Counted from the stretch's first letter, positions 16,601-62,056 are shown. The stretch is DNA of 64,000 bases from Candidatus Nomurabacteria bacterium (GCA_026395915.1 JAPLXU010000020.1:18729-82728); one strand, 5' to 3'. Translations and numbers: made by a program. The notes: generated from the sequence alone by a model not told the origin.

Positions 16601-18172
16601 ATGCGGGATAGAATTTTTTATGCGATTTGTTTTGGTTTTATTTTTGGAGTGCTTTTGCGCTCTTTTCTGTTTGTAAATTTGTATCTAGCTATTCTTTTTG
16701 GAATAATCAGTGTCGCTTTAATATTATTTTTTGCGCTAATCTCGAAAGATAAGTGGCCTGCCCGCAATGCTACGCCCGCCAGCAACGCTTCGCGTAGCGA
16801 TTCGGGCTGGCATAGCGTTGCAGGCGGGGGAATCATGATTTCCATTTTTGTTTTGGCTTTTTCGTTTGGAATTTTAAGATTTCACATGGTTGATGTTCCA
16901 GCGCCAAGTATTTTCGAATCAAAAGTAGGTCAGAAAGTCGCTTTGTCGGGAGAAATTATCGATGAGCCGAGTATTAAGGAAAACAATCAACAATTAACTA
17001 TAAGGACGGTCCTTAAAGAAGTTTCCCCAAGGACCGTCCTTGAAAGATCTATTGAAATTTTGTTATCTACCAGTTTAGATACAGATTACAAATACGGGGA
17101 CAAAATAAATTTTTCCGGCAAACTTGAAAGACCTGAAAATTTTGTCACTGATCAAGGCAAAATTTTTGACTATGTGAATTATCTGCGGAAAGACGGAATT
17201 TTTTACGTGATGAGTTATCCGAAGATTGAAATTGTCTCACGAGGCAACGGCAACAAAATCAAAGGCGCGCTCTTTTTTGCCAAGGACAAATTTTTGGAAA
17301 AGATGAATTTTGCTATCACTGCGCCGGAGAATTTATTGATGGGTGGGCTTATCTTGGGCGAGAAATCTTCTTTCAATCAAGCGCTTCGACAGAGCTTTGT
17401 GAATACCGGCACGATACATATCGTCGCGCTTTCCGGATACAACGTGACGATCGTCGCCGAGTGGCTGATGAAACTTTTTGCTTTCTTGCCGAAAAATTTT
17501 GGCATCGGGATTGGTATTTTAGCTGTCTTATTATTTATCATAATGACTGGCGGAAGCTCGACAGCTATACGAGCGGGGATAATGGCAACCTTGGCGCTTG
17601 TTGCTCGGGCGACTGGCAGAAACTATGATGTCGCTCGAGCGCTTCTTCTCGCTGGTGTGTTCATGATTTTATTAAATCCATTTTTGCTAGTTTTCGACGT
17701 CTCTTTCGAGTTATCTTTTTTGGCGACTGTCGCGGTGATATTTCTCGCGCCAAGAATTGAAAAATATTTTTTGTGGGTGCCGAAGATTTTCCAATTGCGA
17801 GACATTGTTTCGGTCACCTGTGCGGCGTATATTTTCGTTTTTCCTTTTATTCTTTATAAAATGGGTAATCTTTCAATCGTCGCGTTGCCAGCGAACGTCC
17901 TTATTTTGCCTTTCATTCCTTTCACGATGATGCTCGGTTTTCTCACCGGTTTTGTCGGACTGATTTCTCACATAGTTGCTGTGCCATTTGGTTTCTTCTC
18001 GTATTTATTTTTGCATTACGAACTCGGCGTGATTAGTTTTTTCTCCAATTTGCCATTCTCAGCTTTTTATTTCCCCGATTTTCCTCTTTGGCTGACAACA
18101 ATAATCTATGTCTACTTTATTTATAGACTTTTTGGCAGAAATATAAAAAGTTTTTTAAAAAATCAAGAATAA
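16601..18172 (+). CDS. comEC: DNA internalisation channel ComEC/Rec2 (membrane competence domain, no fused MBL domain)
   Basis: polytopic, DUF4131-like N-term and Competence domain pattern (GTIHIVALSGYNVTIV); 523 aa. Confidence 0.8.
   Translation: MRDRIFYAICFGFIFGVLLRSFLFVNLYLAILFGIISVALILFFALISKDKWPARNATPASNASRSDSGWHSVAGGGIMISIFVLAFSFGILRFHMVDVPAPSIFESKVGQKVALSGEIIDEPSIKENNQQLTIRTVLKEVSPRTVLERSIEILLSTSLDTDYKYGDKINFSGKLERPENFVTDQGKIFDYVNYLRKDGIFYVMSYPKIEIVSRGNGNKIKGALFFAKDKFLEKMNFAITAPENLLMGGLILGEKSSFNQALRQSFVNTGTIHIVALSGYNVTIVAEWLMKLFAFLPKNFGIGIGILAVLLFIIMTGGSSTAIRAGIMATLALVARATGRNYDVARALLLAGVFMILLNPFLLVFDVSFELSFLATVAVIFLAPRIEKYFLWVPKIFQLRDIVSVTCAAYIFVFPFILYKMGNLSIVALPANVLILPFIPFTMMLGFLTGFVGLISHIVAVPFGFFSYLFLHYELGVISFFSNLPFSAFYFPDFPLWLTTIIYVYFIYRLFGRNIKSFLKNQE
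16757..16830. repeat. GC-rich imperfect palindrome inserted in-frame in comEC (encodes PARNATPASNASRSDSGWHSVAGGG)
   Basis: cccgcaatgctacgcc ... ggcatagcgttgcaggcggg arms; GC far above flanking CDS. Confidence 0.6.
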
Positions 18173-18266
18173 TGTTTTTAAGGGGTTTCGAGGCTGGCGA
18201 GCCGAGAACTTCAGGATTTTTTAAGCTTCAAAAAATCCGTACCGGCAAAAACCTTTTCCTGACTTT

Positions 18267-18869
18267 CTACTGAGCCCTTTTGAAATTTTCTTCAATCACT
18301 TCCCAATTCAAATTTTCAAAAAATGCTTCCACATATTTTTTCTTTTCGGATGTTGGATAGTCGTAAACATAGGCGTGCTCCCACATATCTATGCCGAGGA
18401 TCCAATCGAGGCCGTTCAATTGTCCAAGATGCTGTTCATCGATCCACGCGGGGACGAGTTGTTTGGATTGTTTGTCCCAGTACAATATCGCCCAACCGAT
18501 TCCACGCGTCATGGCTAAAGTTTTAAAGCCCGTCATCGCGGTTTCCAAAGACGGCGCTTCTTTTTCTATGGCTTTTTTAAATTGAGAATTTGCAGGTAAG
18601 GGCTTTGCTCCGCCTTCGAGTGACCTGAAGTAATATTCATGATTTCGCATGCCATTAAATTCAAAGCTGAATCTGCGTTGAATCTCGCTCACGACATATG
18701 GCGCAAAGTTGTCTTCTTTGGCATAATCCACATATTCAGGAATTTTCTCTAAAATGAGATTCGTATTTTTTACATAACCAGCATAGAGCTTCAAATGCTC
18801 TTCAATATTTCTTGCAGAGATGCCTTTCAATTTTCCGATATTAAATTTTCTTTCTTCAAATTTTTTCAT
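18267..18869 (-). CDS. Fe/Mn superoxide dismutase
   Basis: WEHAYY signature (DMWEHAYVYDY), 200 aa. Confidence 0.85.
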   Translation of the reverse strand: MKKFEERKFNIGKLKGISARNIEEHLKLYAGYVKNTNLILEKIPEYVDYAKEDNFAPYVVSEIQRRFSFEFNGMRNHEYYFRSLEGGAKPLPANSQFKKAIEKEAPSLETAMTGFKTLAMTRGIGWAILYWDKQSKQLVPAWIDEQHLGQLNGLDWILGIDMWEHAYVYDYPTSEKKKYVEAFFENLNWEVIEENFKRAQ

Positions 18870-18905
18870 GTTATCATTATACTATATCTGCCGAATGAAA
18901 ATATC

Positions 18906-60989: not shown

Positions 60990-61880
60990 ATGATTATACA
61001 ACAACAAATCAAAAATCGTTTAAAAGAACTGAAAGAGCGTTACAATTCTCTTAGAATTGGCAAGGATGATCTCTTAAAGCTAATAGAGGAAGCAGAAGTG
61101 GCAGAATCAGTTTATAACTCAAATGCTATCGAAAATTCAACGCTTACGCTGAAAGAAACTGAGCGAATTCTTCTGGAACTTGAGGTTGCGCGTCAAGTTT
61201 CTTCTCGTGAGATTTTTGAAGCGAAAAATCTCGCTAGAGTTTCTGAATATATCAGAGAAAAAGCAAAAACCATTGATATAAATGAAGAAATAATTTTATT
61301 TCTTCACAAAATGCTTATTACAGCAATCAGAGATGACATTGCTGGCAGATTTCGTGCCGTTGGGGAGTATGTTCGTGTAGGAAGTTATATTGCTCCTGCG
61401 CCGGAATATATTAAGAATATGATCAAAAGAGCTATTGCAGAATACGACAATAACCATGAATCATATTTCATAGATAAAATTGCGAAGTTTCATTTAGAAT
61501 TTGAAAATATACATCCATTTAATGATGGGAACGGTCGTATTGGACGGGTACTTATCAATTGGCAATTAATTCGTTTTGGTTTTCCTCCTATAATTATTCG
61601 AAATAAGGAGAAGTCTGATTACTATGATTCATTTGCTTTGTATAGAGATAAAAGCAATATTAGACCAATAGCAAAGATAATAGTTCTTGGGCTTATGGAA
61701 TCATTGCATAAACGAGTCGCATATCTAGAGAATGCCCAGATTATAAAGCTATCTGAGTTTGCCAAAATGCGCCACAAAACTGCTTCAGCTCTTGCAAATG
61801 CTGCTAGACGTCAAACAATTCCCGCTTTTCGAGAAAAAGGTGTTTGGAAAATATCTACGAATTCAATATTGTCTAGTTAA
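60990..61880 (+). CDS. Fic/Doc-family protein (class II Fic with N-terminal inhibitory motif and C-terminal HTH)
   Basis: Fic motif HPFNDGNGRIGR; inhibitory helix motif SNAIEN (S/TxxxE(G/N)); C-terminal HTH-like KLSEFAKMRHKTASALANAARR. Confidence 0.85.
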   Translation: MIIQQQIKNRLKELKERYNSLRIGKDDLLKLIEEAEVAESVYNSNAIENSTLTLKETERILLELEVARQVSSREIFEAKNLARVSEYIREKAKTIDINEEIILFLHKMLITAIRDDIAGRFRAVGEYVRVGSYIAPAPEYIKNMIKRAIAEYDNNHESYFIDKIAKFHLEFENIHPFNDGNGRIGRVLINWQLIRFGFPPIIIRNKEKSDYYDSFALYRDKSNIRPIAKIIVLGLMESLHKRVAYLENAQIIKLSEFAKMRHKTASALANAARRQTIPAFREKGVWKISTNSILSS

Positions 61881-61891
61881 TGTAATTAGCT

Positions 61892-61981
61892 TTCCATCTC
61901 GTAAAGGACAATGTTGTTTTTTATGGTCCGCTTATGTCCGATAGCGAGATCGCTCAGACCTTGGCAACGAAAGGGAAGTAA
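61892..61981 (+). pseudogene. start-less duplicate of the 3' end of gene 60552..60908 (encodes ...HLVKDNVVFYGPLMSDSEIAQTLATKGK*)
   Basis: 44-bp block 41/44 identical to 60822-60865; in-frame stop upstream, no start codon. Confidence 0.6.
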
Positions 61982-62056
61982 CCTCATCCCTGACCTTCCC
62001 CTGAAAGGGGAAGGGGTTTTCCTCCTCTCCTTTCAGGAGAGGATTTAGGTGAGGTG
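61981..62056. repeat. tandem GC-rich hairpins ccttcccctgaaaggggaagg and cctctcctttcaggagagg-N-ggtgagg
   Basis: second hairpin block nearly identical (34/35) to 56461-56495. Confidence 0.8.

Follow-up and report, generated by a model that had tools for sequence, protein, structure and literature searches.

Rickettsia palindromic elements (RPE) are said to be about 100-150 bp long, AT-rich like their host, limited to Rickettsia and its relatives, and translated as surface segments. The bypass elements of yeast mitochondria reportedly break the reading frame and are skipped by the ribosome, in a genome that is AT-rich and compact. REP repeats, which are linked to RAYT transposases, are reportedly extragenic, present in many copies and marked by a GTAG/CGTC tag. 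IS200/IS605 elements have gene-less derivatives, the PATEs. REP and REPIN sequences are treated by Bertels and Rainey (2011; PMC3116915). In mitochondrial genes of Nematomorpha, Mikhailov et al. (2019; PMC6649704) report perfect inverted repeats of up to 284 bp with both arms translated. The BoxC or intrastrand-triplex-motif (TM) repeats of E. coli are reported to be always intergenic (Holder et al., 2015; PMC4666352). The same authors did not find mobility genes near the motifs, proposed a role in genomic instability and studied the single-strand triplex by CD or NMR. Earlier work that they cite did not find promoter or terminator activity.

The window, that is, the whole stretch of 64,000 nucleotides that we analysed, comes from Candidatus Nomurabacteria (Paceibacteria, CPR). 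Its IleS matches a protein from a Ca. Nomurabacteria MAG with 100% identity, and the nearest relatives reach only ~70% IleS protein identity. The original prediction described at least nine GC-rich hairpins in AT-rich DNA and took them for a single family. The GC content is ~40%, so the window is only moderately AT-rich. All nine hairpins were recovered, exactly or within a few bases, and a scan of MFE in sliding 60-nt windows along the whole window places them among its strongest folds (-29 to -37 kcal/mol vs a mean of -9.3, sd 4.4). The window has 11 perfect or near-perfect GC-rich hairpins, shuffled sequences 0-5. The elements are base-for-base the same in independent assemblies from other sequencing runs, and thus are not assembly artefacts. 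With regard to MITEs, which have terminal inverted repeats matching an IS and target-site duplications, the elements are palindromic over their full length. Short GC-rich palindromic repeats of several unrelated families occur in the genome, and the nine hairpins belong to at least four unrelated sequence families rather than one. Rfam gave no match to the elements, and terminator-like sites are not enriched (16 vs 14 expected).

Six of the nine hairpins, which had been regarded as REP/MITE-like, are BoxC/intrastrand-triplex-motif repeats, a known type without a known transposase. We refer to these as family A. The copies, and the gene that two of them bracket, are as follows.

35936-35986, + strand: family A element in IleS, in frame (LTPSPLSLLRRGVGEGS)
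47861-47905, + strand: family A-like element in MetG, in frame (FHHPASGTPPRTG)
48613-48652, no strand given: family A element upstream of DUF559, 3 nt past the metG stop codon
48665-49051, + strand: DUF559 gene (Vsr-like PD-(D/E)XK endonuclease)
49013-49046, no strand given: family A element that overlaps the DUF559 gene at its 3' end
56457-56546, no strand given: two family A elements in inverted orientation, intergenic, arranged as in E. coli BoxC pairs
61981-62058, no strand given: two adjacent family A elements, intergenic, directly behind a stop codon
56484-56497, 56508-56519, 61981-61993, 62044-62056, 48613-48625, 49036-49046 and 35936-35944/35976-35984: third blocks, read directly, which align with the E. 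coli motif

The layout of family A is a pyrimidine arm, a loop, a purine arm, a linker and a third block of the GGGTGAGG type, and it agrees with the published BoxC/TM motif (PMC4666352). A strict detector found six hairpins with a pyrimidine arm, short loop and purine arm (7-10 bp) where 0.04 are expected (maximum of two in 200 shuffles), and two more were found with 1-2 mismatches. The third block is present, is G/T-rich, mirrors the purine arm and lies 2-4 nt from the hairpin. The near-identical block reported for the two intergenic elements is indeed there (56458-56495 and 62018-62055; 38 nt, 97% identity), and the intergenic copies lie 3-18 nt past stop codons. There are matches to the 90-nt window pair in 5397 of 5426 E. 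coli genomes, at a median of 11 places per genome, and in 909 of these genomes at least 80% of the pair is covered by a match. For the ten matches listed, no annotated feature lies under the match. The architecture of the pair aligns with that of the E. coli hrpB-mrcB pair, and GGAGAGGGTTAGGGTGAGG is common to family A and the E. coli repeats. The intergenic-only rule fails here, however, as there are copies inside IleS (35936-35986) and MetG (47861-47905). Other coding copies occur in GlyRS of L021, IleS of L047 and L223, and MetG of L028. The IleS element is 94% identical in L223 and is missing from L024 and from L222, the closest relative of L223. The MetG element is missing from all 21 MetG orthologs aligned, and L028, L029, L009, L017 and L049 have other palindromic inserts at its site.

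The three hairpins outside family A represent separate GC-rich palindrome families. They are listed here with two smaller palindromes in IleS.

16757-16836, + strand: family F1 nested palindrome in comEC, 24 extra amino acids, PARNATPASNASRSDSGWHSVAGG
26952-26988, + strand: palindrome with a perfect stem of 17 bp, in the region that encodes the C-terminal linker of a Pif1-type helicase
33749-33853, + strand: family E3 compound palindrome in IleS, ~34 extra amino acids
33947-33976, + strand: small GC palindrome (TCCGCCAAAGGCGGATCCGCC...) in IleS (SAKGGSASGG), fold z = -5.0
34139-34177, + strand: weak palindromic insert in IleS (RNASGITDAGEKP), the weakest member, fold z only -2.3

In comEC one copy of F1 is nested in the loop of another, and the insert is missing from the 10 comEC orthologs aligned. 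A simple F1 copy in metG of L029 has 19-nt arms that are 100% identical to those in the comEC of the window. The E3 element has a conserved core of ~65 nt and outer arms that are genome-specific and self-complementary. The core is 84-96% identical across three genomes, in which the IleS DNA is ~71% identical overall and ~52% at third codon positions. When metagenomes were scanned with this core, 17 matches were obtained, one in IleS, nine in TGT (tRNA-guanine transglycosylase), one in TyrRS and the rest in other contexts. Among 120 IleS sequences aligned, both smaller inserts are private to the window at their sites; the 33947 palindrome has related copies at other sites in L027 and L021, and the peptide of the 34139 insert is related to F1-type PARNA...AGG inserts. 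The inserted IleS segments are predicted to be disordered, since residues 217-247, 289-292 and 339-353 have pLDDT < 50 and lie between confident strands in an AF2 model that is poor overall (mean pLDDT 64.5).

At least six further coding palindromes had been overlooked, at 16998-17048, 33947-33976, 34139-34177, 36298-36334, 55872-55892 and 390-418, the last of which adjoins the transposase gene at the start of the window. This gene, with the palindromes that we place in family B, is given below.

2-400, + strand: 3' portion, 132 codons, of the gene for a 227-aa Y1/HUH transposase; the window begins within this gene
390-418, no strand given: CCTTAAGCTAGGACTGTCCTAGCTTAAGG, a family B palindrome that overlaps the Y1 stop codon
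16998-17048, + strand: doublet of family B cores (AAGGACGGTCCTT ... AAGGACCGTCCTT) in comEC, ~10 extra amino acids
36298-36334, + strand: palindrome in IleS that has a perfect stem of 18 bp and a family B core
55872-55892, + strand: family B solo copy TAGCAAGAACTGTTCTTGCTA inside ORF 55649-56455, which has no Pfam match

The full Y1 gene (L089:1946-2629) is bracketed by identical 26-nt palindromes at L089:1905-1930 and L089:2622-2647, the upstream copy being outside the window. The same arrangement is found in L213, L215, L217 and L046, and the flanking palindromes co-vary with the Y1 paralog in three other genomes. In a profile search the protein matches Pfam Y1_Tnp (26.1 bits vs a cut-off of 23), and it has the HUH motif NHFHILV and the Tyr motif YIHLNP. 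The original prediction was thus correct in placing a transposase gene here, but the RAYT class that it suggested is not established: the single NCBIfam match, REP_Tyr_transpos (REP-associated tyrosine transposase), scores 28 bits vs a cut-off of 80. Additionally, this is not a single-copy, vertically inherited gene, as there are at least two paralogs on different contigs in GCA_035510575.1 and the genomic context is different in every genome examined.

The family B core AGGACNGTCCT occurs four times in the window vs 0.03 expected. There are five copies of family B in the 64 kb, four of them intragenic, and copies are dispersed in other CPR loci. The core of the transposase palindrome is found elsewhere in the window only at 16998-17048, 36298-36334 and 55872-55892; the assignment of the 36298 palindrome to family B could be coincidental, as the exact core is absent in the relatives' copies. 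No GTAG/CGTC was seen at the foot of the family B palindromes in the window. A blastn-short comparison of the nine hairpins with the transposase-flanking repeat gave no similarity, and the idea of a REP/RAYT system therefore holds for family B alone, which was not among the hairpins first listed.

Alignments of IleS, comEC, MetG and Pif1 show that the elements are insertions relative to the orthologs. The coding copies are in frame and free of stops, as had been predicted, because the ORFs run through them, and these alignments identify every coding copy as an in-frame insertion limited to its lineage, at what is probably a variable loop. Members of these families recur in other genes and genomes with 84-100% DNA identity, and third codon positions of the host genes are close to saturation. 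In CPR, 15 of 50 lineage-specific IleS inserts (7-60 aa long) have a fold z of -3 or below, with a GC excess of +0.155, vs 0 of 49 and no GC excess in Clostridia; IleS inserts that are GC-rich palindromes are specific to the CPR clade. The original prediction had set mobile inserts against ancient conserved loops. The elements are absent from most relatives and their presence or absence does not track the gene tree, which supports dispersed, repeatedly inserted DNA. Where the same sites are used repeatedly, target specificity could be the reason instead of selection, and high conservation of the elements is also expected under strong functional constraint.

The two arms of orthologous palindromes change together, which points to symmetrisation at the DNA level. 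At the Pif1 site, the L016 ortholog also carries a palindrome, which departs from that of the window at three places, one of them an indel; each change is mirrored on both arms and none is one-armed. L222 and L024 have other palindromes at this site. The Pif1 palindrome was found at one orthologous site only, and its mobility is thus not shown. At IleS 36298, six of 18 pairs are changed on both sides in four orthologs, which none of 500 shuffles reaches; 95.8% of cells are paired, almost all as Watson-Crick pairs, and the left arm takes in invariant Trp-Pro codons. In the inner hairpin of E3, GGGTC/GACCC is replaced by CCGTC/GACGG and the peptide switches between Gly and Pro. The right outer arm in TGT spans native A-L-F-G codons that can be aligned to solved TGT structures.

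Taken together, we think it probable that these are dispersed mobile palindromes, filtered by selection to permissive in-frame sites and kept symmetric by template switching. Their distribution shows that copies were inserted repeatedly and independently. Family B would most likely have been inserted by the Y1 transposase, with single-stranded hairpins as its substrate in the manner of REP/RAYT and IS200/IS605; this proposal covers family B alone, and families A, F1 and E3 have no linked enzyme. Surviving copies sit right behind stop codons or in frame, because the genomes have almost no intergenic space. Those in frame are free of stops, probably lie in variable surface loops and would be translated as linkers rich in Gly, Ser, Pro, Arg and Ala. 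The arms evolve in concert and may grow outwards by inverted copying of the host flank, most likely through intramolecular template switching or quasi-palindrome correction. The inserted peptide would then be dictated by the nucleic-acid palindrome and not the reverse.

The concerted arms could also be read as palindromes that arise purely in place, by replication template switching or fold-back copying at fragile loop-coding sites. Such an origin fits the native conserved codons within arms, the genome-specific yet self-complementary outer arms, the mirrored differences (indel included) and the single site of the Pif1 palindrome. It cannot explain identical or near-identical sequences across unrelated genes and genomes (F1 in comEC and metG; E3 in IleS, TGT and TyrRS; family A from CPR to E. 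coli), and we regard it as very unlikely; template switching is better seen as a step of maintenance and extension than as the origin. Less strained, although still unlikely, is that the elements are functional nucleic-acid signals under selection (mRNA hairpins, protein-binding DNA, or recombination or instability hot spots), spread by recruitment and not by selfish transposition. This would account for element DNA far more conserved than the host gene, for palindromy kept despite amino-acid changes and for the position of intergenic family A copies behind stop codons. Additionally, the gene insertions next to family A at metG/tatD fit the instability proposal of Holder et al. Among close orthologs, however, the elements are patchily distributed, one and the same site holds different families in different lineages, and near-exclusive Watson-Crick pairing is as compatible with a DNA process as with an RNA process. 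The Rfam and terminator results given above also argue against signals, as does the earlier work on promoters and terminators that Holder et al. cite. It seems highly improbable to us that the palindromy is incidental and that CPR enzymes have kept the inserts as functional protein loops of ancient origin. Some do recur at one site in many orthologs, and the GSLSPSADGALPLGSSACETPR peptide is present in at least eight of 120 IleS sequences. In other lineages, however, the same site has unrelated sequences and most orthologs are empty; swaps between Gly and Pro preserve base pairing, the same peptide-coding DNA occurs in unrelated enzymes, and disorder is predicted for these segments.

For family A only, the DUF559 gene with its triplex-type hairpins might be an autonomous form, the solo and paired BoxC/TM repeats being gene-less MITE-like derivatives or its target sites. 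We know of no transposase or homing activity in DUF559. With its two flanking elements the gene is an insertion at the metG/tatD junction, where the gap is 0-9 bp in 11 relatives and where different genes are inserted next to family A copies. The CPR data contain two DUF559 genes, and each lies within such an insertion with family A hairpins on either side. In a first scan of viral contigs, six of six DUF559 loci (~70% GC) had, by eye, inverted copies of a CCTCCCCC..GGGGGAGG hairpin with a GGAGGGGG block on both sides; over 32 loci the density of hairpins is 2.18 per kb at distances of up to 200 nt from the ends of the gene vs 0.34 per kb elsewhere. The layout with third blocks inside is common to the E. 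coli inverted TM pairs, the pair at 56457 and the high-GC DUF559 units, and a BoxC lies ~170 bp downstream of E. coli ycjD (DUF559). Against this, hairpins occur at only about half of the sampled DUF559 genes and at none of the low-GC ones, many loci are related and so not independent, no DUF559 was found in the 1 Mb of DNA that surrounds 120 stretches of family A, and the third block is reversed in orientation in the window copy. We consider the idea rather doubtful, and the resemblance of the inverted family A pair to a gene-less DUF559 unit is a tentative lead.

Dispersed mobile palindromes, the reading that we prefer, have counterparts in several known systems. As in REP/REPIN-RAYT, a Y1/HUH gene is flanked by a cognate palindrome that co-varies with the paralog, and solo and doublet copies lie elsewhere. 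In contrast to REP/RAYT, the copies are few, the solos intragenic, the GTAG/CGTC tag is not seen, there are several paralogs, the location shifts and the RAYT score is below cut-off. The small Y1 gene, hairpin ends without other terminal inverted repeats, variable location and hairpin-only derivatives recall IS200/IS605 and PATEs; here, however, the same perfect palindrome is at both ends, the downstream one overlaps the stop codon and the protein (~225 aa) exceeds a typical IS200 TnpA. Like yeast mitochondrial GC clusters and bypass elements, these are GC-rich and probably mobile hairpins in the coding sequence of a compact genome, but all those in the window are in frame and stop-free. The Nematomorpha palindromes are also inverted repeats embedded in protein-coding genes; they differ in being mitochondrial and in not being known as dispersed families of many genomes. 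By analogy, the elements seem to resemble RPE in kind, as both are dispersed palindromes, in frame in housekeeping genes of a reduced genome, absent from orthologs and of several coexisting families. By description they are set apart from RPE by their length (25-105 bp), by being GC-rich in a 40% GC genome, by one family shared with E. coli and by arms that change in concert. Finally, family A is like BoxC/PIT/TM_ECO in being multi-copy, in single or inverted-pair arrangement, in its three-block layout, in near-identical sequence and in having no known mobility gene. It is unlike the E. coli repeats in that Paceibacteria copies lie within IleS, MetG and GlyRS coding sequence, where they are predicted to be translated, and that two copies bracket the DUF559 gene. 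A repeat type reported as always intergenic in E. coli occurs in frame within CPR tRNA-synthetase genes.

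The original prediction placed at least nine GC-rich hairpins in the window, within comEC, a helicase gene, ileS (two) and metG, on both flanks of the DUF559 gene, and as two intergenic compound elements. Direct reading and a fold scan confirmed all nine at their positions. Their minimum free energies in a sliding 60-nt scan are -29 to -37 kcal/mol, compared with a window mean of -9.3 (sd 4.4). The window has a GC content of about 40% and its genes are tightly packed. It contains 11 GC-rich hairpins with a stem of at least 9 bp (0-5 in shuffled sequences) and six polypyrimidine/polypurine hairpins (0.04 expected). 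Logan assemblies made independently for this species from different sequencing runs reproduce the hairpins base for base, so they are not assembly artefacts. The IleS protein has a 100% identical counterpart on an 87.9-kb contig of a Candidatus Nomurabacteria MAG, and the next 119 homologues in rank are Paceibacteria/Patescibacteria proteins (62-70% identical). The 60-nt scan also revealed further coding palindromes.

Palindromes found in addition to the nine hairpins (window coordinates)
390-418, palindrome
16998-17048, palindrome in comEC
33947-33976 and 34139-34177, palindromes in IleS
36298-36334, palindrome in IleS with a perfect 18-bp stem
55872-55892, palindrome in ORF 55649-56455

No Rfam family reached its gathering score across window positions 1-64000. 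Terminator-like sites were not enriched, so a terminator role for the elements is unsupported.

The coding hairpins had been predicted to be insertions, and protein and DNA alignments agree: all of them sit in columns absent from most relatives. The IleS alignment comprised the window sequence and its 119 best homologues, and further alignments were made from the DNA of about 40 related genomes. The insertions are in frame and lie at variable loops.

Segments identified by alignment with relatives
IleS residues 216-249, insert
IleS residues 281-290, insert
IleS residues 345-357, insert
IleS residues 948-960, insert
IleS near residue 1064, extension
comEC residues 53-77, insert
comEC residues ~134-149, insert
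Pif1 helicase residues 459-470, insert
MetG residues 248-262, insert

The GC content of the inserts is 0.5-0.7, against 0.35-0.45 in the host genes, and they fold far above shuffled sequences (z down to -10). As a control, the same pipeline was applied to IleS of 36 Clostridia loci from the same search. None of the 49 lineage-specific inserts in Clostridia had z <= -3 and there was no GC excess, whereas in the Candidate Phyla Radiation (CPR) 15 of 50 had z <= -3 and the GC excess was +0.155. The signal emerges only in this comparison of lineage-specific coding inserts; plain hairpin density was rejected as a discriminator, being 0.072 per kb in CPR loci and not above the 0.107 per kb of Clostridia loci because terminators dominate. 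In an AlphaFold2 model of IleS residues 1-698, which is poor (mean pLDDT 64.5) and serves only for the relative disorder of inserts, residues 217-247, 289-292 and 339-353 are unstructured (pLDDT < 50) and flanked by confident strands. The inserts are probably translated; peptides predicted to span them include LTPSPLSLLR and GSLSGSADPALTLGSSACER.

IleS site 216, the MetG site after STLGWP and the Pif1 C-terminal linker are insertion hot spots, with unrelated palindromic inserts in other lineages. In the Pif1 linker, where the window has a 17-bp palindrome, two related loci (L222 9165-9290 and L024 5641-5766) have a stem of 10 bp, all of it GC (GGGCGCGCCG..CGGCGCGCCC), together with a small hairpin, CCCCTC..GGGG. 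IleS also contains an embedded histidine-phosphatase domain, His_Phos_1 (residues 562-747, window 34790-35347), which is present in all 120 best orthologues, and in a subset of these (proteins of 1311-1365 aa) an HD domain is inserted near the C-terminus.

The hairpins had been regarded as a single family, which does not hold. In an all-against-all blastn-short comparison only the two intergenic compounds share sequence, and by sequence and architecture the elements form at least four groups. The comEC palindrome (F1, 16757-16836) is nested, with arms CCTGCCCGCAATGCTA and TAGCGTTGCAGGCGGG and a second, diverged copy exactly in its loop. A simple copy with 100% identical 19-nt arms is found in metG of locus L029, whose MetG protein is only 53% identical. 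Elsewhere in IleS, other genomes have peptides related to F1 (PARNA...AGG). Both F1 copies (window 16754-16775 and L029 21730-21751) directly follow a Trp codon (TGG, then CCTGCCCGCAATGCTA), and other inserts adjoin TGGCC or GGCC (MetG after STLGWP, IleS after WP, and the Pif1 palindrome with GGCC on both sides); this neighbourhood is possibly a target preference.

The compound palindrome of IleS (E3, 33749-33853) has a core of ~65 nt. Between the window, L222 and L223 this core keeps 84-96% identity, compared with ~71% DNA identity for their ileS genes (~52% at third codon positions). Used as the pattern for a metagenome scan, it gave 17 matches: one in IleS, nine in tRNA-guanine transglycosylase (TGT), all at one single site, one in TyrRS and the rest in small ORFs or unassigned DNA. 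A TGT gene on one metagenome contig (L240 300-1712) has a second insertion of ~30 aa, between the residues aligned with Zymomonas mobilis TGT positions 112 and 113, in addition to E3. For the IleS palindrome at 33947-33976, related copies exist at different sites in L027 and L021. The only other copy found of the Pif1 palindrome (26952-26988) is at the orthologous site in L016.

Six of the nine hairpins (35936, 47861, 48613, 49014, 56461-56543 and 61981-62056) belong to one group, family A, with the layout pyrimidine arm, loop, purine arm, 2-4-nt linker and a block of the GGGTGAGG type. This layout is exactly the TM_ECO intrastrand triplex motif of Holder et al. 2015 (PMC4666352), and family A belongs to that repeat type save for the coding location. 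That motif, earlier named BoxC or PIT, has 23 copies in E. coli K-12, occurs in over 260 prokaryotes and has been tied to local genomic instability (PMC4666352). The 90-nt pair at window 56457-56546 has matches in 5397 of 5426 complete E. coli genomes, at a median of 11 places each, and its blocks align one by one with those of the E. coli hrpB-mrcB pair; no feature annotation lies under the ten E. coli matches listed. At least 120 viral or proviral contigs, with GC contents of 31-74%, also contain the core motif, often in several copies each. Copies in translated positions occur in IleS and MetG of the window and, in relatives, in GlyRS (L021), IleS (L047, L223) and MetG (L028), and the novelty of family A here is this coding location. 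The BoxC/triplex repeat is thus extended from an intergenic oddity of enterobacteria and cyanobacteria to a cross-phylum, translatable element. Beside the pair at 61981-62056, an 86-nt direct repeat (74% identity; 60822-60907 and 61895-61980) flanks a Fic-domain gene (60990-61880). The second copy is a duplicate of the 3' end of ORF 60477-60908 and stops exactly at the start of the family A pair; the Fic gene may thus have been inserted as a cassette.

A RAYT-like transposase gene had been proposed at the window start, where it is truncated. ORF 20-400 alone has no Pfam, NCBIfam or PDB sequence match, and an exact-sequence look-up returned no match. The complete gene (227 aa), recovered from another assembly of the species (L089), encodes a protein with HUH (NHFHILV) and tyrosine (YIHLNP) motifs that passes the Pfam Y1_Tnp cut-off (26.1 bits, cut-off 23). 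The proposal is therefore upheld for a Y1 transposase with flanking palindromes, but the only NCBIfam match, the REP-associated tyrosine transposase model, is under the cut-off (28 bits, cut-off 80) and the related palindromes are outside the nine hairpins. The gene lies between two identical copies of a 26-nt palindrome, TAAGCTAGGACTGTCCTAGCTTAAGG, and the downstream one overlaps the stop codon. In each genome examined the Y1 gene is flanked by the genome's own variant (GCTAGGACTGTCCTAGC, GCAAGAACCGTTCTTGC or, in L046, TTACACAGGGGAACCCTGTGTAA). More than 2000 homologues are present in Paceibacteria, the best 120 of them 65-86% identical; their genomic contexts vary and one genome has at least two paralogues. 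The core of this palindrome, family B (AGGACNGTCCT), occurs four times in the window (0.03 expected). Counting the AGAAC variant brings the total to five, and four of these are intragenic (two in comEC, one in IleS and one in ORF 55649), and solo copies are also found in other CPR loci. The arrangement resembles a REP/RAYT or IS200-type system; it departs from RAYT membership in the score cut-off, single copy, extragenic abundance and the GTAG/CGTC tag. By analogy with REP/RAYT and IS200/IS605, the Y1 transposase would mobilise family B in the form of single-stranded hairpins.

In L089, outside the window and some 0.5 kb upstream of the Y1 gene, an AT-richer palindrome (CTAGACAGAGCTTTAGGCTCTGTCTAG) occurs twice (1316-1342 and 1476-1498), 156 nt apart around a 30-codon ORF and adjoining an AbiEi-like HTH ORF. 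Many contigs with Y1 homologues (P0121-P0240) are just 1-3 kb long, and one identical protein is found in 53 blocks of the contig collection, which suggests that the Y1 gene or its palindromes break assemblies as repeats do.

The elements had been taken to be mobile rather than ancient protein loops. Two outcomes had been named that would speak against this, identical segments at the same sites in distant lineages and a lack of further copies; instead, copies are found in other genes and genomes, and presence does not track descent. By DNA, L222 and L223 are nearest to each other (77% identity). L223 nonetheless shares the triplex element of IleS with the window, at 94% identity where neighbouring third positions agree to only ~52%, and L222, like L024, lacks it. 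The gap between metG and tatD is 0-9 bp in 11 relatives, and other genomes have different cargo there.

Cargo between metG and tatD (TM, triplex motif)
Window 48608-49064, TM-DUF559-TM
L016 21725-22676, TM and another ORF
L047 22407 onwards, TM-GNAT-TM-DUF559 (frameshifted)-TM
L046 21771-23128, HD protein and Y1 transposase with its palindromes
L027 and L040, other cargo

This gap is an insertion hot spot whose cargo also includes methyltransferase-like and GAF-like proteins and is often bordered by family A hairpins.

The two arms of the coding palindromes change in concert. The window, L222, L223 and L024 all have the IleS palindrome 36298 at one shared position but with differing sequences; 6 of its 18 pairs have changes on both sides, 95.8% of cells are paired, and none of 500 shuffles and no slid register was comparable. 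The Pif1 palindromes of the window and L016 have three differences, including a 1-nt length change, all mirrored on the other arm and none unmirrored. Two genomes have GGGTC/GACCC as the inner hairpin of E3 and a third has CCGTC/GACGG, a Gly/Pro swap in the peptide. Base pairing has therefore been kept at the cost of amino acids. These are clean natural examples of two palindrome arms co-evolving inside a reading frame.

Selection on RNA or DNA structure is an alternative explanation for the symmetry, and the pairs are almost all Watson-Crick. The outer arms of E3 vary by genome and context, yet in every case they complement each other, so that the palindromes reach up to ~150 nt. In TGT the native A-L-F-G codons, which align to solved TGT structures, fall within the right outer arm and are mirrored by the left; the left arm of IleS 36298 contains invariant Trp-Pro codons. 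The simplest account would be a process acting on DNA in which one arm serves as the template for the other and the repeat can be extended into the host flank. Intramolecular template switching is reportedly such a process, known as quasi-palindrome correction from Ripley, from Lovett and colleagues, and from Mönttinen and Löytynoja in 2022. Template switching would both maintain and extend the palindromes.

BoxC/triplex-motif repeats are not known to have a mobility function. One hypothesis, which we consider improbable, is that DUF559 forms the mobile unit of family A. In the CPR data, family A hairpins lie on either side of both DUF559 genes, and in the first scan of viral contigs (~70% GC) all six DUF559 loci had, by eye, inverted copies of a CCTCCCCC..GGGGGAGG hairpin flanking the gene, each side with a GGAGGGGG block. 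In a broader sample such a hairpin was upstream in 13 of 32 loci and downstream in 13 of the 24 with enough sequence on that side, at 2.18 per kb near the gene ends compared with 0.34 per kb elsewhere; many of these loci are related, so they are not independent. The layout of the units, with third blocks inside, is that of the gene-less inverted pairs of E. coli and window 56457, and E. coli ycjD (DUF559) has a BoxC ~170 bp downstream. However, about half of the DUF559 genes, including all low-GC ones, do not have such hairpins, no DUF559 gene was near the 120 family A viral stretches, which rejects DUF559 as a general neighbour of the family, and the window unit has its third blocks outside. 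Bracketed DUF559 genes are frequent in L241-L246 and L257-L276 (viral/proviral, ~70% GC), where many contigs stop at the gene itself; the E. coli locus is the fabI-ycjD spacer (L221 1700-1740).

Also on the unlikely side are two linked readings taken jointly: that BoxC/TM repeats are gene-less derivatives or recognition sites of a DUF559 (Vsr-like) mobile unit lying between two inverted motifs, and that the Paceibacteria hairpins seed fold-back copying of adjacent coding DNA. The first, if true, would give a function to both DUF559 and BoxC. If the second is true, essential enzymes constantly acquire new peptide segments through symmetrising at the DNA level, a mutational way of varying protein length that is peculiar to such reduced genomes. 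As to the enzymes that move such repeats, there are testable leads: a Y1 transposase in the case of one family and, possibly, DUF559 in that of another.

CPR genomes are very small and gene-dense and are thought to be repeat-poor. Selection would filter insertions to in-frame, stop-free copies in permissive loops, because intergenic space is nearly absent. The core enzymes IleS, MetG, GlyRS, TyrRS, TGT, ComEC and Pif1 have been invaded repeatedly by short palindromic DNA that probably ends up translated. This accounts for much of the length variation among CPR orthologues and is relevant to alignment, phylogeny and structure prediction. The literature searched, whose coverage is incomplete so that a prior description is possible, gave no link of Rickettsia palindromic elements, REP/RAYT or in-frame palindromes with CPR. 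The closest phenomenon is that of the Rickettsia palindromic elements, selfish palindromes that are translated inside housekeeping genes; in comparison with these, the families described here are different, shorter and GC-rich.
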